Source: Candidatus Woesebacteria bacterium (lineage in GTDB: Bacteria > Patescibacteriota > Microgenomatia > UBA8517). Taken from it: a DNA stretch of 64,000 nt. The stretch lies in the NCBI GenBank assembly GCA_003484955.1, contig DMZH01000001.1:23848-87847 (forward strand). The letters are read 5' to 3'. Positions 5,298 to 22,347 of this stretch are shown here, piece after piece; the first letter of the stretch is position 1, and each line of letters begins with the position of its first letter. The position numbers and the translations under genes were made by a program. The notes below the pieces were generated by a model. That model had not been told where the DNA came from and did no database searches. It was given only the letters and a program-made list of their open reading frames with translations.

Positions 5298-6029
5298 ATG
5301 AAAATAAATAAAAATTATCTGTTAATCGGTGTGTTAGCGATTGTGGTGATAGGATCTGTGTTGCTAATTTCCCGTCAGGGAAAAAGTAAAAGTGAAGTAA
5401 AAAACAAGGTCCGACTTGTTAAATCTTTAGAATTTTCCGTCCTTGCTAAGGATGAAAAAAACTTTCTTTTAGACGTTCATGTGCCCGAACAAACCCATAT
5501 TCCGGGAACTGACGCTTTTATACCCTACAATGAAATTTCCCTCAATTTGGATAAGTTTCCAGAGGATAAATCTACTCCCATCCTTGTCTACTGCAGAACG
5601 GGAACAATGAGTGAGGAAGCATCAAAGGAGATTGCCGGTCTTGGTTACACAAACGTATATGATTTGGATGGCGGGATTAATATTTACAAAGAATCGAATG
5701 TGGGAGTTTTTATAACTCCACAAAATCGGAATTTGGGTCGAGTAATTTATGGAGATATTCCCACAACAACTTTTACTTTAACCAACTTCGGTCCCCTCCC
5801 CTTAAAAATAACACGGGTTTCAACTTCATGCGGATGCACAAAAGCAGAAGTCGATAAAAAAGAACTTGGTGCCTATGAAGCGACCGAAATTAGAGTTTCA
5901 TTCAATCCTGCCGTTCACGGAGACGCAACTGATGTTGGAGGCATAACAAGAACAATCTATATACAAACCGACAACCCCAATATTCCTCGACTTACCAACA
6001 CGATTACGGCTGATGTAATTAAAAATTAA
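5298..6029 (+). CDS. Membrane-anchored rhodanese domain fused to a DUF1573-like Cys-motif domain
   Basis: An N-terminal TM anchor is present. The rhodanese active-site loop reads VYCRTG. The C-terminal domain has TSCGCT...FNPAVHG, paralogous to ORF 21715..22239. Confidence 0.65.
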   Translation: MKINKNYLLIGVLAIVVIGSVLLISRQGKSKSEVKNKVRLVKSLEFSVLAKDEKNFLLDVHVPEQTHIPGTDAFIPYNEISLNLDKFPEDKSTPILVYCRTGTMSEEASKEIAGLGYTNVYDLDGGINIYKESNVGVFITPQNRNLGRVIYGDIPTTTFTLTNFGPLPLKITRVSTSCGCTKAEVDKKELGAYEATEIRVSFNPAVHGDATDVGGITRTIYIQTDNPNIPRLTNTITADVIKN

Positions 6030-6837: not shown

Positions 6838-6914
6838 TAAAATTTATTATCCCATTTACTTCCACAAACATGTGGAGATGCCGGGTGTGGTGTGTTATAA
6901 AGTATAGAGACAAG

Positions 6915-7433
6915 ATGACAACTGAGCGTAAAGTGTTTATTGGTATTGGTTTAGCAACCCTGATAATTATTGTTGGCGGTACCTTCCTGACCTCTAAACA
7001 GAACCAACATTCGAGTAAGCCACTGATGGGTGAAATAATTATCGATCAGGGAACAAATCATGTACCGGACGGTGCTAAGGTAGATTACAATTCCAATCCT
7101 CCCACATCGGGAGTTCACTATGCCAAACCCCAACCAAGCGGAATTTATGATAAGCCGGTGCCGGATGGAAACTTAGTCCATAGTATGGAACACGGTGCAG
7201 TGATTCTTTGGTATAAATCGGATATTCCTGCAACTGAAAGCGCGCAACTAAAATCAGTTTTTAATAGTGTTGCAATAAGTAAAAAGATAATGATTCCCAG
7301 AGATAGTCTAGAGGTACCAATTGCTTTAACTTCCTGGGGAAGACTATTGAAGCTTCAAACAATTGATGAAGGCCAAATAAAGGCTTTTATGGAAACAAAT
7401 GAAGGTCGAGGCCCAGAGCAAGCCCCAATCTAA
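6915..7433 (+). CDS. Membrane-anchored DUF3105-like protein
   Basis: One TM is followed by HVPDG...YNSNPPTSGVH...VHSMEHGAVILWY, a conserved-His pattern recalled for DUF3105. The start is trimmed to the ATG at 6915. Confidence 0.45.
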   Translation: MTTERKVFIGIGLATLIIIVGGTFLTSKQNQHSSKPLMGEIIIDQGTNHVPDGAKVDYNSNPPTSGVHYAKPQPSGIYDKPVPDGNLVHSMEHGAVILWYKSDIPATESAQLKSVFNSVAISKKIMIPRDSLEVPIALTSWGRLLKLQTIDEGQIKAFMETNEGRGPEQAPI

Positions 7434-8062: not shown

Positions 8063-8674
8063 ATGTTTAAATTACCAAAACTTCCATACTCTTTCGACAC
8101 ACTAGAGCCCTACATTGATGCCCGGACCATGCAAATTCATCATGATAAGCATCATCAGACATATGTAGATAAGCTAAATGCCGCATGTGCAAACGATGCC
8201 TCACTGGCAGGAAAAACAATTGAAGAGATCTTAAGCGACCCTGCGAATATCAACGGCGATATCAGAACAGCAATAATCAATAACGGCGGAGGTCATCTAA
8301 ACCATAGTTTCTTTTGGAAAATCATGTCTCCGAACTCCCCTTTTAACCCAAAAAGCAATGTCGGAAAAGAAATCATAAATACTTTCGGGAATTTTGAATC
8401 ATTTAAAGAAAAATTTTCAAATACGGCAGTGGGTAGGTTTGGAAGCGGTTGGGCCTGGCTTGTCGTCAATAAAGGAAGATTGGAGATTGTTGATACCCAA
8501 AACCAAAATACACCCATATCGATCGGCATGAATCCGATTCTTTGCCTTGATGTTTGGGAACATGCATATTACTTGAAATATCAAAACAAAAGAGCCGATT
8601 ATGTCAATGCCTGGTGGAACGTGGTCAATTGGAAAAAAGTTGAGGAGAATTTTAGTGAAGCTATCGCTCAATGA
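8063..8674 (+). CDS. Fe/Mn superoxide dismutase
   Basis: LPKLPYSFDTLEPYIDARTMQIHHDKHHQTYV and DVWEHAYY are metal-ligand signatures of Fe/Mn SOD. Confidence 0.9.
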   Translation: MFKLPKLPYSFDTLEPYIDARTMQIHHDKHHQTYVDKLNAACANDASLAGKTIEEILSDPANINGDIRTAIINNGGGHLNHSFFWKIMSPNSPFNPKSNVGKEIINTFGNFESFKEKFSNTAVGRFGSGWAWLVVNKGRLEIVDTQNQNTPISIGMNPILCLDVWEHAYYLKYQNKRADYVNAWWNVVNWKKVEENFSEAIAQ

Positions 8675-10598: not shown

Positions 10599-11315
10599 CT
10601 ACTTCTTCTTAAAACTTATCGTCCTTGCCCCAACCAAAAATTCATACATTGGTCCCCAGACAAGACCCCATGAGAGCCCCCAAAGCATTTCTGTCCAAGG
10701 TATGTGTTTAAAAATAATTATCCCCTGCTCCGTTCCCGACAGTTTCCAGATTCTCTCTACCCAAAAGTGACTTTGAGGGAAAAACTCCTGTCCCAAGAAA
10801 TAGATTATAAACATTGTACCGGCTACCAAAAATGCTGAACCTACAGCATGAATTAACAAATCCGGCCGCAAAACTAACATAACTATCGCAAATATAACCA
10901 TTCCAATAGAACTCGCATAAATTGAGTTTAAGCCTAATAAGTTATTCAAAATAATCATGGCAAACCCTTCTATTGCAAAAAAGACCAATAAAAACAGTTC
11001 ATGCCTTCCTTTTTTCTCCACACATTTACAAACACCTCTTACAAATAAAGACTCATAGGCAAAGGCCCCTATCCCTCCGATGGAAAATCCAAAGAGTAAA
11101 TCTTCAACTCCGCCAATAATCGGTAACGGCAATGCGATTTCAGGCTTCCAATAATCCGCAAAATACCAGATCTCAGAAATCGGGCCAAATGAAGCCGTAA
11201 TCAAGCTCATAATCAACATCGGACGCCTTAGGCTTTTTACTCTCCAGTAGATAAATAACCACACAGCCAGAAAGAAAAAATTCGCAATGAGATAAGTATA
11301 TTTGTAATTAGCCAT
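10599..11315 (-). CDS. Polytopic membrane protein, lycopene-cyclase-domain (CrtYcd)-like
   Basis: It has multiple TM helices. Two acidic motifs in loop regions (GGVEDLLFGF, GPMYEFLVG) resemble the PxE(E/D) repeats of this family. This is a weak call. It overlaps the ABC ATPase gene by 8 nt. Confidence 0.35.
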   Translation of the reverse strand: MANYKYTYLIANFFFLAVWLFIYWRVKSLRRPMLIMSLITASFGPISEIWYFADYWKPEIALPLPIIGGVEDLLFGFSIGGIGAFAYESLFVRGVCKCVEKKGRHELFLLVFFAIEGFAMIILNNLLGLNSIYASSIGMVIFAIVMLVLRPDLLIHAVGSAFLVAGTMFIIYFLGQEFFPQSHFWVERIWKLSGTEQGIIIFKHIPWTEMLWGLSWGLVWGPMYEFLVGARTISFKKK

Positions 11316-12153
11316 TATAATTGGTCTGATTTAAGTTACCGACAAACTTTTCAGGTTCTTTTTTGAATTCGTTCATACACCCCTCGGAGCAAAAAAAGTA
11401 TTCTTTCCCCTTAATGGTCGTTTTATTAGCCCCTTTTTCTATGCTCATTCCACATACAGGATCGGTTGTCATTTTACCTATTTCTTTAAATATGCCATCT
11501 TCAAGCCATAGGATTCTATCCGCCACATCTCTGATTCTATTGTCATGAGAGACGATAAGAACGCTTTTTCCTTTCTTTTTGGCGACTTCTCTTAGGAGTT
11601 CCATTACTTCGTGTCCGACTTTAGAATCCAAGTTAGCTGTCGGCTCATCGGCCAAAATTATATCCGGGTCATTAACCAGAGCCCGTGCAATTGCCACCCT
11701 TTGTTTCTCTCCTCCGGAAAGATTTGCCGGAATATCGTTCATTCTGTCTGCCAATCCCAAACGCTTCAGAATCTCTTCGGACTTTTCTACCGCATTACCC
11801 CCATTTCCGGCAAATTCCGCAACCACCTGAACATTTTCTTTTGCAGTTAGGGAAGCCAAAAGAAGAAATTGCTGAAAAATAAAGCCTACCTCGGAAAGTC
11901 TTTTTTTGGTTAATATGTCCTCACCCATTCCGCCAATATCACTTCCGTTTAAAATAACTTTACCTGAGGTTGCCTTTAGTATCCCTCCACCTATTGAAAG
12001 GAGAGTCGTTTTACCGGAACCTGAAGGTCCCATTATTAAAACAATTTCTCCCTTTTTAACTTCCAGATCGACTCCGTTGAGCGCTTTCACCTGGGCATGA
12101 CCTTCACCAAACGCCTTGGTTATTTTGTGTAAGTCTAAAATTATGTTTGTCAT
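11308..12153 (-). CDS. ABC transporter ATP-binding protein (MacB/LolD type) with a C-terminal YHS metal-binding domain
   Basis: Walker A reads GPSGSGKTT, the signature is LSGGEKQRVAIARAL and Walker B is ILADEPTANLD. The C-terminal 45 aa read DPVCGMSIEKGANKTTIKGKEYFFCSEGCMNEFKKEPEKF, matching the YHS/TRASH pattern. Confidence 0.85.
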   Translation of the reverse strand: MTNIILDLHKITKAFGEGHAQVKALNGVDLEVKKGEIVLIMGPSGSGKTTLLSIGGGILKATSGKVILNGSDIGGMGEDILTKKRLSEVGFIFQQFLLLASLTAKENVQVVAEFAGNGGNAVEKSEEILKRLGLADRMNDIPANLSGGEKQRVAIARALVNDPDIILADEPTANLDSKVGHEVMELLREVAKKKGKSVLIVSHDNRIRDVADRILWLEDGIFKEIGKMTTDPVCGMSIEKGANKTTIKGKEYFFCSEGCMNEFKKEPEKFVGNLNQTNYNG

Positions 12154-12176
12154 GACAAAGTTGTCACAAACTCCGT

Positions 12177-13340
12177 CTATGATCTAAAAACCATAGCGGG
12201 ATCTGTTTTGGCAATTCTTGTTATTGGAATATAGGTCGCAACAAAGCTCATGATAATTGAGGAAGCAAATGCCAAAAGATATATTTGTAAGTTAAATTCC
12301 ACAACCATATTGATTACATCCACCACCAACTTCGAAACCAAGAAAGCCAGTATTACACCAAAAATATAACCAATAATCGATGACCACAGGGCTTGTTCAA
12401 AAACAATCAAAAAAAGTTTCTTTCTGGAGGCGCCGATAGCTTTCAGGACACCATATTCCTTTATTTTTTCCATTGTTGCCGTGTAAATAGTCAACCCCAC
12501 AACAACCGCTCCCGTAGCAAAACCGATAATTGTAATTACAAAAATAATCGGGACAAATGTATCCATTAAAGCTTTAGCATTGCTCTTGGCAAAGTCGCTT
12601 TTTTTATAAGCGGTGATTCCCGGAATGTTTGACTCCAATTTCTCCGCTATTTCTGAAGCACGGGAGGGATCGGTCAATGAAATGAGGATGAAATTCGCCC
12701 TGCCTTTTTGCCGCAAAATTTCCTGCGCTTCATCCAAATCAACAAATGCCCTTGTATAAAGCATCATGTTGTTTTTATCCGTAATTCCGACAATAGTGAA
12801 TACCTCATCAAATACTTCGACCGAATCGCCAATTGTAAGTCCGTTTTGTTTGGAAAAAACCCTATCAACGATAATTTCGCGTTTTCCGGGAGTTTTGGTT
12901 CCGGACAAAAGTATCGGCGGGCCCCCGACACCCGTTTCCGTATCAAAACCCATGAGGGTGATTGTTGCCTTTTTTGCTTTTTTATTTTCACCTTTCTTGC
13001 GTCCCGCAAAGTCTACGATTTTACTTCCGTCTTCTTCCCTAACCCGGACATTTGTGGTTCTATTTACAAGACCATATACTTTTCCGCCGCTTATGGTTTC
13101 CACTTGGCTCATTTTGTTTGCATCAAGAAGCGAAAAAGTGTGTGACATGTCGGTTACACCCTCCTGAGCGATAACCAAATCTGCAGCGAAACTCTCAACA
13201 TAATCTATAAGAAGTCTGTTGAAAGCATTATAGATACCAAGAAGAAATACTATCAGGAGAATCGAAAAGGCTACACCCCCAACCGAAACAAAGAATCTGG
13301 TTTTTTCAGCAAATAAATTTTTGCGGGCGATACTCACCAT
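12177..13340 (-). CDS. ABC transporter permease, FtsX/MacB family
   Basis: An N-terminal TM is followed by a large extracytoplasmic domain and a C-terminal FtsX-like 3-TM bundle. It overlaps the adaptor gene by 7 nt. Confidence 0.8.
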   Translation of the reverse strand: MVSIARKNLFAEKTRFFVSVGGVAFSILLIVFLLGIYNAFNRLLIDYVESFAADLVIAQEGVTDMSHTFSLLDANKMSQVETISGGKVYGLVNRTTNVRVREEDGSKIVDFAGRKKGENKKAKKATITLMGFDTETGVGGPPILLSGTKTPGKREIIVDRVFSKQNGLTIGDSVEVFDEVFTIVGITDKNNMMLYTRAFVDLDEAQEILRQKGRANFILISLTDPSRASEIAEKLESNIPGITAYKKSDFAKSNAKALMDTFVPIIFVITIIGFATGAVVVGLTIYTATMEKIKEYGVLKAIGASRKKLFLIVFEQALWSSIIGYIFGVILAFLVSKLVVDVINMVVEFNLQIYLLAFASSIIMSFVATYIPITRIAKTDPAMVFRS

Positions 13341-14338
13341 CTGATTATTTCTCCATCCTCAACTCCTTCCAGAACTTCCCAATTTACACCGTCAAAGATT
13401 CCAAGTTTTATCTTCTTCTCACCTAAACCGGTTTTAACAAAACTATTCCCTCCATTTTTGTAGACAGCTTCTTTTGGAACCAGTAAAACATCTTTCCTAT
13501 CTTCAAGTGTAATTTCCGTATCTCCGTTTATTCCGATGATCGGCTTTTCGGGAAAGTTTTCAAGTTTTATTCTGACACCGACAACGTCACCACCTTCAGT
13601 TTGAGTCACGGACTGTGCAATATAATAAACTTCACCATCAAATTTTCTATCCGGATATGCATCGAAAGAAACTACTGCCTTTTGACCGACTTTTACATTC
13701 TGTATATTCTCTTCGTCTACCTCTGCCGAAAAGTAAACCGTGTCAGGATCAATCAAGACTATTCCGGGTTCCAGAGAAAATGCTGAAACCCATTCGTTAA
13801 CTTCTAAACTTTGAGTTATAACAACACCCGAAAAAGGAGCATAAAGTGCACTATCGGTGATAGACTTTTTAGCACTCTCCACAGATTTTACTGCTTTATC
13901 TTTTTTTACTTCCGCTTGAGTTCTTGTTTGTTTTTGAGTGTAGGTTTCATCCGTATCGTGTCCTTTAACCTCATCATATATTTTGGCAAGCTCTGCCTCT
14001 GCTTGACGCAAATCGTCTTGTGCGCGGCCTAAAGACAAAGACAGCTCTTCTACGTCAAGACGGGCCAGAACTTCATCTTTCTTAACCTGATCTCCCTCAG
14101 AAGCTTCGACCGAATCCACCCGTCCCGTTGCCTTAAATGAAAGTTCTGCTTTTTTTTCGGCATCAAGTTTTCCGGAAGCCGATAAAAAAGAGCGTATATC
14201 GCCCCTGCCTATTTTACCCTCATTTTTCGGATTTACCTGAATTAAAAAATAAGCCAGAAGCACGGCTAGAACGAGTCCAATCAGGATAAAAGGCTTTTTG
14301 AAAAAAACTTTCATTTTTAGAATAATACCTGTCTTCAT
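13334..14338 (-). CDS. Periplasmic adaptor (HlyD/MacA membrane fusion protein family)
   Basis: It has a signal/anchor, a coiled-coil-rich region (LRQAEAELAKIYDEV) and a beta-barrel C-terminus. It forms an operon with the MacB-like permease and ATPase. Confidence 0.75.
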   Translation of the reverse strand: MKTGIILKMKVFFKKPFILIGLVLAVLLAYFLIQVNPKNEGKIGRGDIRSFLSASGKLDAEKKAELSFKATGRVDSVEASEGDQVKKDEVLARLDVEELSLSLGRAQDDLRQAEAELAKIYDEVKGHDTDETYTQKQTRTQAEVKKDKAVKSVESAKKSITDSALYAPFSGVVITQSLEVNEWVSAFSLEPGIVLIDPDTVYFSAEVDEENIQNVKVGQKAVVSFDAYPDRKFDGEVYYIAQSVTQTEGGDVVGVRIKLENFPEKPIIGINGDTEITLEDRKDVLLVPKEAVYKNGGNSFVKTGLGEKKIKLGIFDGVNWEVLEGVEDGEIIRW

Positions 14339-15530: not shown

Positions 15531-15725
15531 TTACTTGCCTTTTCTAAACTTTTCCCTTTCTTCCTCGGGAACCCAATAATCGGGATATGCGTCAAATAAG
15601 TGTTTATCGTTTTCCGTGTCAAAATAATACACCTTCCCTAAAAACTCCGATGAAAACTTCATTCGGGATTTGGGCATAACCATCCCACACACGACATCTT
15701 TTACCATTTCTTCCGGATTGTCCAT
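15531..15725 (-). CDS. YHS-domain small protein
   Basis: DVVCGMVMPKSRMKFSSEFLGKVYYFDTENDKHLFDAYPDYW matches the YHS pattern. The start is trimmed to the ATG at 15725, which overlaps the upstream stop by 1 nt. Confidence 0.6.
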   Translation of the reverse strand: MDNPEEMVKDVVCGMVMPKSRMKFSSEFLGKVYYFDTENDKHLFDAYPDYWVPEEEREKFRKGK

Positions 15726-15982
15726 TACTTTGTAAATCGATTGTAGAGCCAGGCAAACAGCCATCCTGTGAGCCAGGAAACGACCGTAAAGCTAACAAGT
15801 CCCAACAAAAATCCTTCCGGTGCACTTTTCCAAACTCCGCTCAGGTCTAACATATGCATCCAGCTTTCCGCCACGGATTTATATAAACCAGGAAGCCAGG
15901 AGGCAACCACAAAACAGCCTACAAAATAAATAGCTCCGAGTAAACCACTGGCATTTGCAAAGGCAGATTCTTTTAATTTCAT
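15725..15982 (-). CDS. Small two-helix membrane protein
   Basis: It has two hydrophobic helices and is co-directional and contiguous with the YHS gene. Confidence 0.4.
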   Translation of the reverse strand: MKLKESAFANASGLLGAIYFVGCFVVASWLPGLYKSVAESWMHMLDLSGVWKSAPEGFLLGLVSFTVVSWLTGWLFAWLYNRFTK

Positions 15983-15999: not shown

Positions 16000-16857
16000 T
16001 TATAATTCCCAATTGAAAACTACATTTTTACCGTCTATCCCTTTTATGTTAAGCCCCACGCTTGAGGCTTTACCGGACAACTTATTAAAAACCAGATCTC
16101 CCGAAACATGATGCCCCGCGCTTTCCCCCGTCCATTTTACAGGCTTGTAGATGTTACCCGTGTCATCAACCACAACTACTATCTTTGTATAGTCATAGTT
16201 TAGATCAATTGAATGATTATCGAGTGAAACCGTAAAAACCATTTCTCGCCCACGAGCCAGTTGTTTGGGGGTTATTTCCATATCCACAACACCAACCTGC
16301 TTTACCTGAGCCTCCATCGGATTTACTTTTACGCTGGCGCCAAGTGAGGACGGCTTTTTGGCAAACACATCTTTTGTTATAGTAAACACGCCGAAAGCCA
16401 GAACCAAGACGGCTGATGACATAAATAAATATTTAAAGACGGGTTTATCCGTAAGACGCATAAGTTTGGCCATATAAAAAATTCCCAGAATATTCATAAG
16501 TACGCCAAAAATCAAAAAGTCTTTCTGATAGGCAGTTAAGACCAAACCCAAAGCCGACACTCCCAAGATCGGCAAAAGATCACTGGCATGGTGAACACAA
16601 CAAAGAAGCATTGAAACACCGGACACTGTCGATGAACTTCCAACCAGACGGAAACCCTTCCGGACAAGCTGAAAAAGACCCATCTGCACACCGAAGCTTA
16701 ATATGAGGAGACTTATCCAGGGCTGCAAGATTACAAACTGATCAAGCGAATGACTAATGCCTCCACTCAATAAAGAACTCAGAAGGAAATAAAAAAGTGC
16801 CAGTCCCAATGATCCAAAAATTGACCATTTAGTAAAAATTTGCCAAGGTTTTGTCAT
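16000..16857 (-). CDS. Membrane protein with a C-terminal extracytoplasmic beta-rich domain
   Basis: It has ~5 TM helices including LLCCVHHASD. The C-terminal ~110 aa are soluble and contain HH. It overlaps the SCO1-like gene by 4 nt. Confidence 0.5.
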   Translation of the reverse strand: MTKPWQIFTKWSIFGSLGLALFYFLLSSLLSGGISHSLDQFVILQPWISLLILSFGVQMGLFQLVRKGFRLVGSSSTVSGVSMLLCCVHHASDLLPILGVSALGLVLTAYQKDFLIFGVLMNILGIFYMAKLMRLTDKPVFKYLFMSSAVLVLAFGVFTITKDVFAKKPSSLGASVKVNPMEAQVKQVGVVDMEITPKQLARGREMVFTVSLDNHSIDLNYDYTKIVVVVDDTGNIYKPVKWTGESAGHHVSGDLVFNKLSGKASSVGLNIKGIDGKNVVFNWEL

Positions 16858-17531
16858 TTATTCAGTTTTGAAATGTTTGTGAGAAGTTCCTTGTTGTTTA
16901 TCCTCATATCCGGATCGTCTTTTTCATAGCGTATAACCCCATCTCTATCAACAACTACATATGTATGCCCCGGAAATTGGCCCCTGTGCATCGAGGAATC
17001 AACTGTCAAGACCCCGTAACTTTCCGAAACTTTTCTGTCAGAATCAAGTAAGACCGTGGCTGAGGCAATTTTTGGATCCTCCCTGACTACACCATCCCAA
17101 TCGGCTTTTGAATCTACAACGACAACCAAAACAACGGTATTCTCCTTTGAAAATCCTGAATCTTTTGTAAAAGCATTTATTTGATCCCAGCAGGAAGGAG
17201 CACACATGGCTCCCTCACTGAAAAACAAAACCACATTCTTTCCCTTAAAACTTGCAAGATCAACTTCGCGTCCGTCATATGACTGAAGTTTAAAGAGAGG
17301 AGCCGGAGAGCCCAGAAGTGATTGAAATTTGGTATTATCAGCGGGTGGGGGCGGAGCATGCATACCTGCCATATCATCCACCTCAGCCGGCGTTGTCGAA
17401 GCGCCCGCAATTTTACTGTTGCCGGATTTAAGAAGATCCAGTGCCAATATTGCCACAACCAATACCGCGATAAATCCAAGCGCGATTCCGGCTGAAATTA
17501 AAACCTGTTTAATGCTTATACTCTCTTCCAT
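16854..17531 (-). CDS. Membrane-anchored thioredoxin-fold protein, SCO1/SenC-like (CxxxC)
   Basis: A TM anchor is followed by FFSEGAMCAPSCWDQ, a C-x3-C like the SCO1 CPDVC motif rather than a thioredoxin CxxC. A downstream His is in HTYVVVDRDG. Confidence 0.5.
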   Translation of the reverse strand: MEESISIKQVLISAGIALGFIAVLVVAILALDLLKSGNSKIAGASTTPAEVDDMAGMHAPPPPADNTKFQSLLGSPAPLFKLQSYDGREVDLASFKGKNVVLFFSEGAMCAPSCWDQINAFTKDSGFSKENTVVLVVVVDSKADWDGVVREDPKIASATVLLDSDRKVSESYGVLTVDSSMHRGQFPGHTYVVVDRDGVIRYEKDDPDMRINNKELLTNISKLNK

Positions 17532-17537
17532 AATTTT

Positions 17538-19733
17538 TTATATCTCAATCAAATCCTTTTCTGCACGCTTCAAAAGTACCGCGTTAGCGGCAACAATAAT
17601 AGATGAAATGCTCATTAAAAGCGCTGAAAATTCAGGCCTGAGGGTTATGCCGAATTTAGGATATAAAACTCCCGCCGCAATCGGAATGGCGAGTAAGTTG
17701 TAGACACTGGCCCAAACCAGGTTTTCCTTCATTTTTCTCACAGTGGCCTTTGAAAGTTTGATCGCCCGCAAAATATCGGCGGGATCCGATTTCATTAAAA
17801 CAACTTTTGCCGTCTCAATCGCAACATCGGTTCCCGCTCCTATTGCGATTCCTATATCGGCCTGCGCAAGGGCTGGAGCATCATTAACCCCGTCTCCAAC
17901 CATACCTGTAAATTTACCCTCTTTTTGCAGTTTTTTGACATAAAAGGCCTTATCTTCCGGCAGAACTTCGGAAAATATCCTATCGATACCGAGCTGCTTG
18001 CCAATTATTTCTCCCGTCCTTTTGTTATCCCCAGTAATCATAGCTATTTCCAACCCCAGTTCTTTCATGCGGGCAATAGCTTTCTTGGCATTTTTCTTAA
18101 TCGGATCGGAGGCGGCGGCAATTCCTGCAATCCTATTATCAACCGCCAAAATCATAATGGTTTTCCCTTCCGAGAGAAGCCGGTCGATGTCTTTTTGCAG
18201 AGGGCTTACATCGAGCTTACGGTCGTTCATTAGTTTTACTGTTCCGACCAATATCTCTCTACCGTCGACAACTGCTTCAACTCCGTGGCCGGCAAGATTT
18301 TTAAACTTCTCAATTTTAACGGGGATGGATATTTTTCTTCGTTTGGCTTCTTCCAAAACGGCCAGGCTCAGAGGGTGGGAGGACTTTGCCTCGGCTCCGG
18401 CATTAAGTCGGATTATTTGATCCTGAGTAAATCCTTTGACTGCGACAATATCTGTAATTTGAGGTTTTCCCTCAGTCAAAGTGCCGGTTTTGTCCAAAAC
18501 AATCGATTGCAATTTAGAAACCTGCTCAAGAGTTGGTGCATCCTTAATTAAAATATTATGTTTGGCCCCAAGCCCTGTACCGACCGCAACCGCGGTAGGT
18601 GTGGCAAGTCCCAAAGCGTCCGGACAGGCAATTACAACTGTAGAAATCGCGAAAGTTAAGGCAAAAAGAATTGGCTGCCCCAAAATGAAGAACCAAATTG
18701 CAAACGTTAAAAGTCCTCCCCCAACGGCAACAATCACTAAATACTGCGCAAATCGATCGGCAATCTTTTGTCCCGGCGCTTTTGAGTTCTGTGCGGTTTC
18801 CACAAGTTTAACAATCTGTGCAAGCGCAGTGTCTCCGCCAACCTTGGTGGCTTTAAACTTAACCGACCCCGAAGTATTAATTGAACCGCCAATTACTTTA
18901 TCGCCGATCCCTTTAACGACAGGCAAAGATTCCCCCGTTACCAACGACTCGTCGATAGCAGTTTCACCTTCAATGATTTCTCCGTCAACCGGTATCTTAT
19001 CTCCCGGCTTTAAGATTAAAATATCCCCGACTTTAATTTCTGATGTTGGGACAAGCTCTTCCCTGCCTCCGACAAGACGTCTGGCCTGAGGCGGAACCAG
19101 ATCAAATAAAGCCTGAAGGGCATCGGTGGTTCCACGGCGGGATTTCATTTCCATCCAGTGTCCGAAAAGAACAAATGTAATAAGAAGGGCAGCCGCTTCG
19201 TAATAAGAATCATTGCTTCCGATAAAAGTCAGAAGAACACTGAAAGAATATGCCGCCGTTATTCCGACGGCGATAAGAACGGCCATATTTAAGGTCTTTG
19301 CCTGAAGAGCCTTTACCGTTGAATAAAGAAAAATCCAGCCTGAATAGAAAAAGACCGGTGTTGTTAAGATTAGAGCAACCCAGGGATTTGGACGAATGAT
19401 GGAAAAATAAACAATCGGCAGTACAAAAATCAATGCAAAGAAAAACTTGTTTCTAATATCCTCCTCCATGAGAGCCGCCATTTCCCGCCCCGCGATTCCT
19501 CCGTGTTCCATACCCATGGCCATAGTCATCCCCATCTTTGTTTTTTCCCACCAAGCCATCTCTGTCACCGGTTTCATTTTGTGCATATCATGTCCGGCAT
19601 GTTCATTTTTTACCTCTTTCTTTTTACTTTTGACCTCTACCAATTCCATCCCGCACTTGGGGCAAGTTCCCGGTTCGTTCATCACAACATCCGGATGCAT
19701 AGGGCAAATATATTTATTCATTTCGTGTTTCAT
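17538..19733 (-). CDS. copA: P1B-type copper-translocating ATPase (CopA-like) with an N-terminal CPxH...CPxCGM metal-binding domain and a CPD transmembrane motif
   Basis: Motifs YICPMHPDV...CPKCGM, Met-rich MGMTMAMGMEHGG, TGES, DKTGTLT, GDGVNDAPAL, TM7 YN and TM8 MSISS are all present. The TM6 motif is CPD (tgt ccg gac), not CPC. Confidence 0.9.
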   Translation of the reverse strand: MKHEMNKYICPMHPDVVMNEPGTCPKCGMELVEVKSKKKEVKNEHAGHDMHKMKPVTEMAWWEKTKMGMTMAMGMEHGGIAGREMAALMEEDIRNKFFFALIFVLPIVYFSIIRPNPWVALILTTPVFFYSGWIFLYSTVKALQAKTLNMAVLIAVGITAAYSFSVLLTFIGSNDSYYEAAALLITFVLFGHWMEMKSRRGTTDALQALFDLVPPQARRLVGGREELVPTSEIKVGDILILKPGDKIPVDGEIIEGETAIDESLVTGESLPVVKGIGDKVIGGSINTSGSVKFKATKVGGDTALAQIVKLVETAQNSKAPGQKIADRFAQYLVIVAVGGGLLTFAIWFFILGQPILFALTFAISTVVIACPDALGLATPTAVAVGTGLGAKHNILIKDAPTLEQVSKLQSIVLDKTGTLTEGKPQITDIVAVKGFTQDQIIRLNAGAEAKSSHPLSLAVLEEAKRRKISIPVKIEKFKNLAGHGVEAVVDGREILVGTVKLMNDRKLDVSPLQKDIDRLLSEGKTIMILAVDNRIAGIAAASDPIKKNAKKAIARMKELGLEIAMITGDNKRTGEIIGKQLGIDRIFSEVLPEDKAFYVKKLQKEGKFTGMVGDGVNDAPALAQADIGIAIGAGTDVAIETAKVVLMKSDPADILRAIKLSKATVRKMKENLVWASVYNLLAIPIAAGVLYPKFGITLRPEFSALLMSISSIIVAANAVLLKRAEKDLIEI

Positions 19734-19802: not shown

Positions 19803-19964
19803 TTATTTGATGTATTTTTCGGGGTTCATGTCAAAACGGTCCTTGCAACTTTCAGAGCAGAAAAAATACGCTTTATCTTTGTATTCCACCTCGTATTTTG
19901 TTTTCTCTGGAAGTTCCATTCCACAGACCAAATCCAATAATAAAGATTGTACAGATTTTGACAT
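19803..19964 (-). CDS. Unannotated 53-aa YHS-domain protein between csoR and copA
   Basis: I translated it by hand: MSKSVQSLLLDLVCGMELPEKTKYEVEYKDKAYFFCSESCKDRFDMNPEKYIK. The ATG overlaps the csoR stop (TAATG). Confidence 0.6.
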   Translation of the reverse strand: MSKSVQSLLLDLVCGMELPEKTKYEVEYKDKAYFFCSESCKDRFDMNPEKYIK

Positions 19965-20230
19965 TATCTTCTTTTAAATACTTTCAGCAGTTCGTCTACC
20001 GCCTTTTTCTTATTGCTTTTGAATTGTTCCGAAACATGAATCGTAAGATGTCTTTCCAAAATTAGGCCGTCCAGACTTTTAAGAGAATTTTGAATTGCCA
20101 GGCTTTGGTCAAGGATGTCCGTACAATATTGATCCTGATCGATCATTTTATTAAGGCCGTCCAACTGCCCTTTAATAATATTGATACGTTTTTCCGCAGA
20201 GGCCTTGTTTTCGTCTCGAAGATGTTTCAT
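19964..20230 (-). CDS. csoR: CsoR/RcnR-family metal-sensing transcriptional repressor
   Basis: It is an 88-aa helical protein. YCTDIL...ERHL carries the C-H-C ligand pattern of the CsoR/DUF156 family. Confidence 0.8.
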   Translation of the reverse strand: MKHLRDENKASAEKRINIIKGQLDGLNKMIDQDQYCTDILDQSLAIQNSLKSLDGLILERHLTIHVSEQFKSNKKKAVDELLKVFKRR

Positions 20231-20241
20231 GAGTTATACTC

Positions 20242-20261
20242 TATACCCGTGGGGGGGTATA
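20242..20261. promoter_or_regulatory. GC-rich inverted repeat TATACCC-N6-GGGTATA within the csoR promoter, a candidate CsoR operator
   Basis: The repeat tataccc/gggtata flanks a G7 tract. It lies between a TTGACA -35 (minus strand, 20262..20267) and the csoR ATG at 20230, and resembles known CsoR operators. Confidence 0.45.
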
Positions 20262-20282
20262 TGTCAAGCGTTAAGCTTTATT

Positions 20283-21185
20283 TTAAGCTCCACAACTTCC
20301 TCCGGTCGGCTGTCCCGGCAGCGGCCCAACTATGCTTTGAAGCCTTTGGGCACCCGTCGCTGAAGAGAAATCTTTCCCTAAAACTTTTTTGGCATCAACC
20401 TTGTCCCACGAAATATTCTGACGATCAAAATAAATTGCCGCTGTCAAATAATTATCCGGGAACCAGAAAGAGTTTAGTTTAAGTATGTTGCGATAAATCT
20501 CATCGTCGGACAGATTTTTTGCAACCATCATCTCAATTGCGCCGAGAGCAGCCATTCCATGATTACAATCGGGGAACCATGTGGGATTATCACAGCAAGG
20601 CCTATAAATATTCTGGGCTATGTCCGCAACTCTTTTTTGCTGATCGGGGGTGAGTGCTATCAGATTAAATTTATTTAAATACTTTGTCGCATCCCCCTTG
20701 GCTAAAGTCCAGCCTCCTGTAGAGGCGAAGTTGCCTTCCTGGCCCTTATATTCATTTCCAAAAGGCCCGTCCGTATAAATAATTGATTTTTGTGCCAAAC
20801 CTATTGCCCAAAGAAGATCGACCACAAACTGCGAATTTTCCGAATTAATTGTAACAGGCGCGTCTGTACCTCCCTCAAGAATTTTCTTCTGCTCGGGAGT
20901 TGCCTGAACGGCCTCTTCAAATTTTGCCTGGTCTATTACTCCGGCCTCAACAAGCTCCTTACCCAAGTCTCCCCATGAAATTGGAAGCGTAAAGCCTTCT
21001 TTTGGAGTAACCGCATCGGCGAGAGCCTGAAACGCTGTTCTTTCTTTGGCATTTTTCTTTGCTGTCTGATAATCTTTTATCCCAGTTAAAAATTTTGGAG
21101 AACTCATTCCAAGTACAAGCCCTCCCATTCCCACTGCCAAAAACAGCAGCACCAGTACAACTATAAATAAAATATTTTTCTTCAT
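20283..21185 (-). CDS. Secreted protein with a Cys-rich motif (PCCDNPTWFPDCNHG)
   Basis: A signal/anchor peptide is present. CC-x8-C-x-H and a C-terminal GGSCGA are present. No family was recognised. Confidence 0.45.
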   Translation of the reverse strand: MKKNILFIVVLVLLFLAVGMGGLVLGMSSPKFLTGIKDYQTAKKNAKERTAFQALADAVTPKEGFTLPISWGDLGKELVEAGVIDQAKFEEAVQATPEQKKILEGGTDAPVTINSENSQFVVDLLWAIGLAQKSIIYTDGPFGNEYKGQEGNFASTGGWTLAKGDATKYLNKFNLIALTPDQQKRVADIAQNIYRPCCDNPTWFPDCNHGMAALGAIEMMVAKNLSDDEIYRNILKLNSFWFPDNYLTAAIYFDRQNISWDKVDAKKVLGKDFSSATGAQRLQSIVGPLPGQPTGGSCGA

Positions 21186-21718
21186 ATGAAAAAGTTTATC
21201 AAAATATAAATCACAAGGCTTAATACTACCATACTTCCCAAACTAAAAACTACCCTTTGATATGGAAAGTAAACTTTTCCGGCTCTTTTGATTAAAAAAT
21301 TATCACCAATATCAACCAAGTAGAATAAAATAGCTCCTGCAAGCATTCCAAAAGTAAGCTTATCCAATCCAAAAATCTGAGTCATTCGGATGACAAGCTG
21401 GAATTTATAAAATGACCATATGGTTGAAGCAAAAACAAGAATATATATGGCGGGCTTTAATATTTTTTTATATTTTTCAACCTGCTTGATTTTTTTTGAG
21501 ATCAACCAGGAATATAACCAAAAGCTACTTGAGCCGAGAAGTGTGGCTATCCACACACCGGTAATAGAATCATCTATTCCGACCCATCTGGTTAATGTCA
21601 CCCCCGCTGCCGCACCGGCAACACAAAGCGGACAATGAGCCGAAACCGACGAGGGTGTTGCGATGAAATTCACCGTAAACAGGGAGAATAAAGTAACCAG
21701 GAGAATCTTCAGTTTCAT
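21182..21718 (-). CDS. Polytopic membrane protein with an HCPLC motif after the signal peptide
   Basis: A signal peptide is followed by SAHCPLCVAGAAAG and ~4 TM helices. It overlaps both neighbours by 4 nt. Confidence 0.45.
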   Translation of the reverse strand: MKLKILLVTLFSLFTVNFIATPSSVSAHCPLCVAGAAAGVTLTRWVGIDDSITGVWIATLLGSSSFWLYSWLISKKIKQVEKYKKILKPAIYILVFASTIWSFYKFQLVIRMTQIFGLDKLTFGMLAGAILFYLVDIGDNFLIKRAGKVYFPYQRVVFSLGSMVVLSLVIYILINFFI

Positions 21719-22239
21719 TTGACTACCTCCCCGTCAAACTCCAGTATTTTGTAACCGACATCAAAGAAAATCATTATGACTCTGTCAACTGCGCCAATCC
21801 CTTGCGGGCCATGGGCTGCCGGATCAAATTCAAAGATAACCTGAGCAGTCTCTCCGGCGGGAAGATCGAAATCAAGCAAGGGATTAAGATCCCCATTCAT
21901 CTCCATCCCATAAAACTTTGTTTCCTTATTGCCCAATTTTACTTTTGCCACCGTACACATACAGGAGGTTGTTATTTTTCTGAGTTTTATGGCGGAGGTT
22001 GAGGTGTTTTTTATATCAAAACTTTTCGAAATTATTCCGCCTCTGTACGGCACTTTACCCAAATCAATCCTCCCTGACGGGCTAGCCTCCAAATTCGCCG
22101 CTTCGACATTGTTTATATAACTGTCTTTTCCATTACTGTTACTGCCACTGGAAGCCCTGGTCATTAAAAACGCGAATCCTCCAACCAGGAGTATCGTTCC
22201 TACAATTATGGCCAAAATAGTCTTACCTTCTTTTGTCAT
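21715..22239 (-). CDS. Membrane-anchored DUF1573-like protein (TSCMCT motif)
   Basis: A TM anchor, an S/N-rich linker, then ITTSCMCT...FDPAAHG. This is paralogous to the C-terminal domain of ORF 5298..6029. Confidence 0.55.
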   Translation of the reverse strand: MTKEGKTILAIIVGTILLVGGFAFLMTRASSGSNSNGKDSYINNVEAANLEASPSGRIDLGKVPYRGGIISKSFDIKNTSTSAIKLRKITTSCMCTVAKVKLGNKETKFYGMEMNGDLNPLLDFDLPAGETAQVIFEFDPAAHGPQGIGAVDRVIMIFFDVGYKILEFDGEVVK

Positions 22240-22347
22240 TTATTTTGCGATGCCTCACTGCCGTGGTTATTTTTCATATGTATACCCTAACGTCCCGTAA
22301 GACACATGTCAAGTATTAAATCCGCGGGCCAACATTTTGTAATTAAG

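Follow-up and report, generated by a model that had tools for sequence, protein, structure and literature searches.

A conserved three-gene module of envelope cysteine-motif proteins in the CsoR/P1B-ATPase loci of Patescibacteria

Inspection of a 64,000-nucleotide stretch of a Candidatus Woesebacteria contig (DMZH01000001.1; this whole stretch is termed the window, and coordinates refer to it) had led to the proposal that three consecutive genes beside a copper locus encode envelope proteins acting as a relay for a thiophilic metal or for thiol chemistry. The genes lie on the minus strand and are designated A (21715..22239; 174 residues), encoding an N-terminally membrane-anchored DUF1573 protein recognized by Pfam and by alignment; B (21182..21718; 178 residues), encoding a polytopic membrane protein of an unnamed family; and C (20283..21185; 300 residues), whose product, also of an unnamed family, comprises a transmembrane (TM) helix and a globular ectodomain. 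Their coordinates, strand and 4-nt overlaps of stop and start codons, ATGA at both the A/B and B/C junctions, are as the original prediction gave them, and translation of the three is coupled. Immediately downstream of the trio comes csoR, followed by a YHS gene, a P1B-ATPase gene and a redoxin gene, all on the same strand.

The interval of 52 nt previously placed between C and the csoR promoter is correct as a number but not in its endpoint: it separates the stop codon of C from the start codon of csoR, and the csoR -35 box starts only 15 nt past the C stop. A scan of the window for promoters and terminators revealed no terminator-like site between the two genes. The csoR promoter (20228..20267, minus strand) consists of TTGACA (20267..20262) and a -10 element, TAGAGT (20243..20238), whose spacer holds a perfect inverted repeat, TATACCC-N6-GGGTATA (20242..20261), a CsoR-type operator and the sole perfect copy in the window. 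A putative promoter for A-B-C (22278..22312, minus strand) pairs TTGACA (22312..22307) with a weak -10 element, TAGGGT, 17 nt on; because of the latter it was not listed by a consensus promoter scan, and the exact TTGACA match was found separately. A single half-site of the CsoR operator, GGGTATA (read as TATACCC from the plus strand), lies upstream of A at 22287..22281. The promoter of its own that had been ascribed to A, combining TTGACA with a TATACCC half-site, is thus present at 22312..22281, but the half-site by itself is weak evidence, since the 7-mer occurs eight times in the window.

The trio, with either a CcdA-type or a B-type membrane partner, is a conserved part of the Patescibacterial CsoR/P1B-ATPase locus in hundreds of species of the candidate phyla radiation (CPR). 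The C family comprises more than 5775 homologues at 90% clustering and 650 clusters at 50% identity, and was found in at least 590 species in a genome scan; the named lineages include Woese-, Gottesman-, Ames-, Roizman-, Levy-, Davies-, Beckwith-, Colwell-, Nomura-, Jorgensen-, Niyogi- and Liptonbacteria and WWE3. To sample synteny, 80 loci were fetched from distinct species and their open reading frames (ORFs) searched, partners being sought within 8 kb. These loci bear Patescibacteria titles of many lineages, except for records whose titles were judged unreliable: the metagenome-assembled genome records L001 (96% identical to the window), L002, L003 and others carry the titles "uncultured Gammaproteobacteria" or "Saccharibacteria", which look erroneous or like placeholders given how closely the sequences are related to Woesebacteria/Microgenomates loci. 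The synteny with metal genes that would be expected of a metal-linked module was found: a P1B-ATPase gene occurs within 8 kb of C in 61 of the 80 loci and a CsoR-family gene in 43, and a DUF1573 gene lies near C in 60. By our rough estimate, the one or two copper ATPase genes of a genome of about 1 Mb would lie within 8 kb of a random gene in a few per cent of cases. Counting same-strand genes within 3 kb in the 45 loci that have at least 3 kb on each side of C, an ATPase gene was found in 36, either an ATPase gene or csoR in 40, DUF1573 in 36, and a membrane partner in 39.

The same gene set is kept in more than a dozen gene orders. With R denoting csoR, M a CcdA homologue (described below) and P the ATPase gene, nine loci each have R-A-B-C-P (the commonest B-type order), R-P-A-M-C and A-M-C-P; four each have R-A-C-M and A-M-C; three share the order of the window, A-B-C-R-P; and many further orders were seen once. 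The TM4 motif of the ATPase is CPC in 30 related loci, CPH in 16 and CPD in 5-8, and the regulator has the x-C-H-C fingerprint of the Cu(I) type in 32 of 45. Retention of the module through rearrangement and across pump subtypes is a classical sign of functional coupling.

Operators of the form ATACCCC-N-GGGGTAT sit 4-25 nt upstream of csoR in 11 related loci. In L007 such an operator precedes csoR, A, B, C, the gene for a cupredoxin, and copA, each overlapping the next or only slightly spaced from it; L084 shows the same tight arrangement, and in eight loci the csoR coding sequence ends right before A. In L002 and L020, where A comes first, a full CsoR-type inverted repeat lies between TTGACA and the -10 element directly upstream of A; in the window and in L001 a single operator arm is left at this position. 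For the family there is good support for belonging to the CsoR regulon; for the window copy this is plausible.

Genes neighbouring C fall overwhelmingly into two functional sets, one related to copper (ATPase, CsoR, cupredoxin, HMA, YHS) and one to thiol redox chemistry (CcdA, DsbD_2, DsbA-like, thioredoxin, thioredoxin reductase, VKOR, redoxin). The frequency nearby of DsbA-like, VKOR, thioredoxin and thioredoxin-reductase genes, together with the role of CcdA as a general electron conduit, would fit a general Dsb-like system of envelope disulfide maintenance, merely clustered with metal genes in small CPR genomes and having no specific role in copper handling. We regard this as improbable, given the location of the trio between csoR and the ATPase gene in one packed operon behind a CsoR operator, the full operator upstream of A in L002 and L020, the fusion of C to HMA and cupredoxin domains, and the persistence of the link across three ATPase subtypes and many gene orders. 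Two further unannotated protein families were seen to be cop-linked in Parcubacteria: a 178-residue soluble helical protein ending DCCDEK (L046:6239-6775; 22 loci) and a 150-residue membrane protein with HGGQHSCP...NCP (L073:5825-6277; 19 loci).

The Cys/His motifs of all three proteins are under strong purifying selection, as judged from alignments, and all three products are predicted to show these motifs on the outer face of the membrane. The motifs are those originally recognized: TSCMCT and FDPAAHG in A, VSA|HCPLC in B, and PCCDNPTWFPDCNHG with a terminal GGSCGA in C. The further claim that all three proteins are unannotatable holds for B and C, which match no family, but not for A. As had been surmised, A is a membrane-anchored protein related to DUF1573. 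It is Ig-like, has its anchor at the N-terminus and passes Pfam PF07610 (33.4 bits versus a cutoff of 26.1; E = 4.8e-8), with positions 7-49 of the 98 in the profile aligned. Of its homologues 251 were found, and all 120 among the matches listed carry PF07610; a search of PDB sequences with the A-family profile gave no match. Residues C93, C95 and H143 are invariant in 33 sequences, within the motifs T-S-C-x-C-T and F-x-P-x-x-H-G, which along with a few other residues are themselves invariant. DUF1573 homologues have been reported in which selenocysteine (UGC) replaces the first Cys of CxC, tabulated alongside selenocysteine forms of heavy-metal ATPases, MerT and YHS proteins (PMC9312934). This argues for a reactive site, and does not separate redox chemistry from metal binding.

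Protein C shows the most elaborate set of conserved residues: C197, C198, C207, H209 and C298 are invariant in the alignment of relatives, as is a FASTGGW motif. The pattern P-CC-x8-C-x-H occurs in 145 of 150 family representatives, and a Cys lies exactly at position -3 in 119 of the 137 with a complete C-terminus, within a tail of the form GG-x-C-G-[AV]. The AlphaFold model is confident overall (predicted local distance difference test, pLDDT, 91.9), with a disordered C-terminal tail in which residues 295-297 fall below 50. C had been described as secreted. Membrane anchoring appears at least as likely: the model contains a continuous N-terminal helix (residues 2-59), and relatives insert a rhodanese domain after that helix. 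No match to C was found in Pfam, NCBIfam, PDB sequences or PDB folds. Searches of PDB sequences with the single sequence and with a profile returned chance-level matches only (E >= 0.48), and 41 members compared with Pfam at E-values up to 10 gave scattered weak matches that were taken as chance, those dismissed for B and C members including DUF3945, DUF3007 and MadL. C is not built on the thioredoxin fold, which places CxxC where helix 1 begins, and the sole repeated fold match, to the three-helix domain of CcmH, is below significance (Foldseek E = 6.4). Reading the Cys motifs as ligands of Fe-S clusters was considered and thought unlikely, the N-terminus of C being of plain Sec type without a twin-arginine motif. 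UniProt and NCBI label proteins of the C and B types as uncharacterized, and the databases contain identical proteins, entered as hypothetical, from Candidatus Woesebacteria bacterium GW2011_GWA1_40_43 and from ACD_13.

Domain fusions of C are of several kinds. A rhodanese with an intact catalytic loop, YCKTGRMS, lies between the TM helix and the C domain in 23 of the 80 loci; it is fused to DUF1573 in two loci and encoded by an adjacent separate gene in four. Other fusions join C to HMA, cupredoxin and DsbC_N domains, and 13 representatives have an N-terminal multi-TM domain with G-A-A-C-P-x-C-G in a helix. The window itself encodes a second membrane-anchored DUF1573 protein (5298..6029, plus strand), fused to a rhodanese (Pfam Rhodanese, DUF1573 and the HYDIN/VesB-like Ig-like PF22544), with the rhodanese active-site Cys in CRTGTMS and the DUF1573 motifs STSCGCT ... 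NPAVHG, all kept in L001. It ties rhodanese to the module inside the window genome, mirroring the rhodanese-C fusions elsewhere.

Such fusions raise the prospect of a sulfane-sulfur relay, in which a rhodanese persulfide would be passed to the terminal Cys arm of C, in the manner of SoxY, and on to its CC/C/H centre or to DUF1573, either to handle reactive sulfur or to trap exported Cu(I) as surface copper-sulfide species. The active-loop rhodanese, which is PspE/GlpE-like, and the conserved terminal Cys on a tail disordered in the model speak for such a relay; the substrate-carrying C-terminal motif of SoxY is GGCGG (PMC6067878), and CsoR-family regulators are able to control sulfur oxidation (PMC10318464). 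We nevertheless consider this relay unlikely: sox, sqr and pdo are not among the 30 commonest neighbour families, the regulators are mostly of the Cu(I) type, and 57 of the 80 loci, including the window, have no rhodanese on C. Neither the SoxY family hidden Markov model (HMM) nor its fold matches C in sequence or structure, the resemblance being confined to the tail, GGSCGA with Cys at -3.

The membrane partner of C differs among lineages. In 50 of the 80 loci it is a polytopic protein of 278 residues, in 18 it is B, and in none are both present; 12 loci have neither, many of them on truncated contigs. The profile of the 278-residue family matches the Thermus CcdA structure (PDB 5VKV; E = 9.2e-19, 218 positions), the two catalytic Cys falling in register, P-C in TM1 and C-x-P in TM4 are invariant, and 15 of 31 members match DsbD_TM; on this sequence evidence we identify it as a CcdA homologue. 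Its members mostly carry PCC and CCxP in place of single Cys, one Cys of each CC pair being invariant. Since the two partners are mutually exclusive beside C, B fills the CcdA slot: most lineages have the CcdA homologue, and Woesebacteria-like ones have B. CcdA homologues would, like transporters of the DsbD/ScsB class (PMC3322552), move electrons from cytoplasmic thioredoxin to Cys proteins outside the membrane. DUF1573 and C are likely clients of CcdA, being the only adjacent extracytoplasmic Cys proteins in most CcdA-type loci; a thioredoxin-fold redoxin occurs in just 8 of the 80.

For B itself, the topology first suggested, four TM segments with HCPLC right after a signal peptide, agrees with both model and alignment. 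The confident AlphaFold model (pLDDT 86.5) consists of a signal-peptide helix, a coil, a short Gly/Ala-rich helix starting from CPLC, and four long helices; the Sec signal peptide has a conserved A-x-A site. Among 40 relatives, A27 (position -1 of the signal-peptidase site), C29, P30 and C32 are invariant and H28 is present in at least 90%, so that mature B is predicted to start His-Cys-Pro-Leu-Cys on the outer face of the membrane. B has this single CxxC, at one site. Sequence, profile and fold searches gave no Pfam, NCBIfam or PDB-sequence match and no convincing PDB fold relative; 40 members compared with Pfam at E-values up to 10 yielded scattered weak matches, taken as chance, and none to MerC or MerT. 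That B might be a degenerate CcdA was rejected: profile-profile comparison with the neighbouring CcdA-like family gave a probability of 1%, and neither DsbD_TM nor DsbD_2 is matched. Comparison of B with the CPxCG membrane domain fused to C elsewhere gave an hhalign probability of 13%, aligned at CPxC only, and homology between them is not demonstrable. Many B-type loci (L084:4340-6577, L004, L005, L008, L020-L023) have, beside csoR-A-B-C, a divergent operon encoding a DsbD_2-cupredoxin fusion, an HMA protein and one or two B paralogues with the motif A-V-CPIC, which lacks the His; the window has no such DsbD_2-cupredoxin operon across its 64 kb.

A further membrane domain associated with C is represented in the window by an unannotated protein of 285 residues (16000..16857, minus strand) with LLCCVHH in a TM helix and a C-terminal beta-rich domain containing GHH. 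P0394 joins this LCCVHH domain to a C-family protein, and 16 related loci encode it as a separate gene. C is thus repeatedly paired, by adjacency or fusion, with four apparently unrelated Cys-pair membrane domains. Such variety recalls the mercury-resistance membrane proteins MerT, MerC, MerF and MerE, which are comparably diverse, and permits a Mer-like hand-off to be entertained, in which A and C, acting like MerP, would deliver a thiophilic metal ion to a membrane protein with a Cys pair, which in the role of MerT, MerC or MerF would move it along or through the membrane. B, the CPxCG or LCCVHH domain, or the CcdA homologue in its CC-variant form would be the receiver, and the N-terminal His-Cys-x-x-Cys of B would form an N/S metal site. 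Besides the pairing of C with at least four such domains, two features speak for this: the predominance of PCC and CCxP in the CcdA-like proteins, and the invariant signal-peptidase site right before H28-C29-P30-x-C32, which recalls the hook of nickel superoxide dismutase (HCxxPC), itself produced by N-terminal processing (PMC2234264). Copper import from an efflux operon has no obvious logic, however; the CcdA homologue retains one invariant Cys per CC pair and aligns with true CcdA end to end, B matches neither MerC nor MerT in Pfam, and its spacing is C-x2-C as against C-x3-C in the nickel hook. We therefore hold a hand-off of this kind to be quite unlikely.

With a confidence slightly beyond an even chance, we favour reading A-B-C as an extracytoplasmic Cys-based accessory module of the Patescibacterial copper-efflux (CsoR/P1B-ATPase) regulon, engaged in Cu(I) binding, in electron relay or in both, and resembling Scs. 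Most of that confidence attaches to a copper-regulon envelope thiol module, and far less to any specific path of electrons or metal. Invariant thiols (CxC plus His in A, the N-terminal HCPLC in B, and CC-x8-C-x-H with the terminal Cys arm in C) would capture Cu(I) from the ATPase at the membrane surface and/or reduce copper-oxidized envelope thiols. They would be held reduced by cytoplasmic electrons via CcdA where CcdA is present, and the disordered C-terminal Cys (-3) of C could swing to and fro between the membrane partner and the CC/C/H centre of C itself. In this way the trio probably acts outside the cell, by binding copper after its export or by repairing thiols that copper has damaged; a role in metal binding is compatible with one in redox chemistry. 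The relay for thiols or a thiophilic metal that the original prediction envisaged gains support from CcdA in the place of B (50 loci), from rhodanese-C proteins (23 loci) and from the HMA, cupredoxin and DsbC_N fusions.

Several observations weigh against the copper-regulon reading. Evidence for the module consists throughout of sequence and predicted structure. Fold searches of the PDB revealed in B and C neither a thioredoxin fold nor any recognizable redox or metal-binding fold, and the CC-x8-C-x-H centre could be a structural Zn site. Having no cytoplasm-facing Cys, B cannot be a like-for-like replacement of CcdA as a transmembrane electron carrier. The genes may be neighbours as members of a general metal/thiol island and not of one pathway, and a search of the whole window for perfect inverted repeats revealed no second full CsoR operator upstream of A. 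Lastly, Cu(I) is uncertain as the metal handled in the window, where the regulator is RcnR-like (H-C-H-H) and the ATPase has CPD, not CPC.

These last features merit description. The CsoR/RcnR-family repressor (19964..20230, minus strand; Pfam PF02583, E = 4e-21) matches the family HMM and lacks the x-C-H-C fingerprint of Cu(I)-sensing CsoR; in alignment it has H3-C36-H61-H65, the pattern of E. coli RcnR, and its operator is still CsoR-type. RcnR of E. coli is a Ni/Co sensor. The P1B-type heavy-metal ATPase (17538..19733, minus strand) has an HMBD zinc ribbon, a His/Met-rich N-terminal stretch, CPD in TM4 and MSISS in TM6. Compared with P1B-1 CopA proteins it has the E1-E2 ATPase and HAD domains and MSISS, with CPD and not CPC, and HMBD and not HMA. 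This CPD subtype is found also in L001, L002, L024, L025, L030, L037, L049 and L058; in assembly GCA_000994465.1 the ATPase gene is broken into three ORFs. The thiophilic metal handled by the window copy is probably copper, though the regulator and pump are not a canonical CsoR/CopA pair.

The remainder of the co-directional metal cluster is also on the minus strand. Between csoR and the ATPase gene lies a gene for a small YHS protein with a metal-binding domain (19803..19964; Pfam PF04945, E = 1.3e-16). Beyond the ATPase gene are those for a membrane-anchored thioredoxin-fold redoxin of the TlpA/ResA type with CAPSC (16854..17531; Pfam PF00578 and PF08534, with weak NCBIfam ResA/TlpA matches), the LCCVHH protein, and a two-TM DUF5676 protein identified by Pfam (15725..15982), which has counterparts in 24 of the 80 related loci; a second YHS protein, also a Pfam assignment (15531..15764), is encoded by a gene overlapping that for DUF5676, and these two mark the end of the cluster. 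A MacAB-like exporter (11308..14338, minus strand) is made up of an adaptor in the periplasm, a permease of the FtsX type and an ABC ATPase; the last has at its C-terminus a metal-binding YHS domain, a hint that export is gated by metal. Two plus-strand genes, for a DUF3105 protein (6870..7433) and an Fe/Mn superoxide dismutase (8063..8674), are situated between the metal cluster and the gene for the rhodanese-DUF1573 fusion.

Much of bacterial diversity belongs to the Patescibacteria, whose genomes are minimal and nearly all of which are uncultured. Among their notable genes copA has been reported across genomes (PMC8672522); the present results indicate that in the CPR copper operon DUF1573, C and a membrane protein with a Cys pair routinely form a conserved core. 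They define two sizeable unnamed families, B and C, whose Cys/His motifs are invariant and for which searches of PDB libraries detected no fold relatives, provide a first functional context for a DUF1573 subfamily and a likely client set for CcdA in organisms without cytochromes c, and offer small expressible targets for work on copper homeostasis and thiol redox chemistry. There is a modest chance that the terminal Cys arm and the rhodanese hide new chemistry; were this sulfur chemistry, it would represent a new way to neutralize copper outside the cell. In an extended form of this idea, which we find quite doubtful, C would be a new extracytoplasmic carrier universal in CPR, its Cys (-3) arm loaded with rhodanese sulfane sulfur or CcdA electrons and serving a Cys3-His copper site so that Cu(I) is converted to an inert surface copper-sulfur species, with B supplying a processed N-terminal His-Cys-x-x-Cys "hook" as a metal site in the membrane. 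If true, copper-detoxification chemistry and two protein folds without a described counterpart would be at hand.

Searches of the accessible literature revealed no description of this module, and Pfam (2025 copy) and NCBIfam (2026) contain no model for B or C; with A assigned to a domain of unknown function only, none of the three falls into a characterized family, in keeping with the original prediction. Several known systems are nonetheless instructive. Mer systems likewise combine an extracytoplasmic Cys protein with interchangeable, unrelated small membrane proteins bearing a TM Cys pair, MerC being a four-TM protein with CxxC in TM1; they differ in that no homology was detected and in that the context here is a copper-type ATPase and CsoR, not MerR and MerA. 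CopL of S. aureus and CueP of Salmonella are, like the proposed module, envelope copper binders expressed with an efflux pump. CueP uses Cys ligands and depends on a Scs/Dsb reductive pathway. CopL is a membrane-tethered or surface Cu-binding protein (PMC5947656). Neither shows sequence or fold similarity to the proteins described here, and the vicinal CC, C-x-H and terminal Cys arm of C are not described for them. SoxY, in conjunction with rhodanese, resembles C in its Gly-rich C-terminal tail with Cys at -3 (GGSCGA versus GGCGG; PMC6067878) and the frequent active rhodanese fusions of the latter, but C has another fold and size, no Sox partners and a copper context. CcdA pathways leading to ResA or StoA, or to CcmH in cytochrome c maturation, differ from the module, as the likeness of C to CcmH is not significant, no cytochrome c maturation genes are nearby, and the window has the non-homologous B instead of CcdA.

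The closest parallel in kind is Scs (ScsABCD) of Salmonella, Caulobacter and Proteus, in which copper-induced envelope Cys proteins are joined to a DsbD/CcdA-type transporter and a membrane-anchored redoxin, the redoxin of the window being the counterpart of ScsD. The DsbD-like protein of Scs reduces envelope proteins that repair disulfides and bind Cu(I) (PMC10907172, PMC8900818), and ScsC combines disulfide isomerase activity with sub-picomolar binding of Cu(I) (PMC10907172, PMC3322552, PMC8900818). Scs proteins are, however, thioredoxin-fold relatives of Dsb in a diderm periplasm, whereas A is Ig-like, B and C have no detectable relation to Dsb or thioredoxin, and the module described here resides inside the CsoR/ATPase operon of monoderm-like CPR cells. 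The kind of system, envelope Cys proteins with a CcdA/DsbD-type partner under copper control, is already known; here it is built from unrelated parts.

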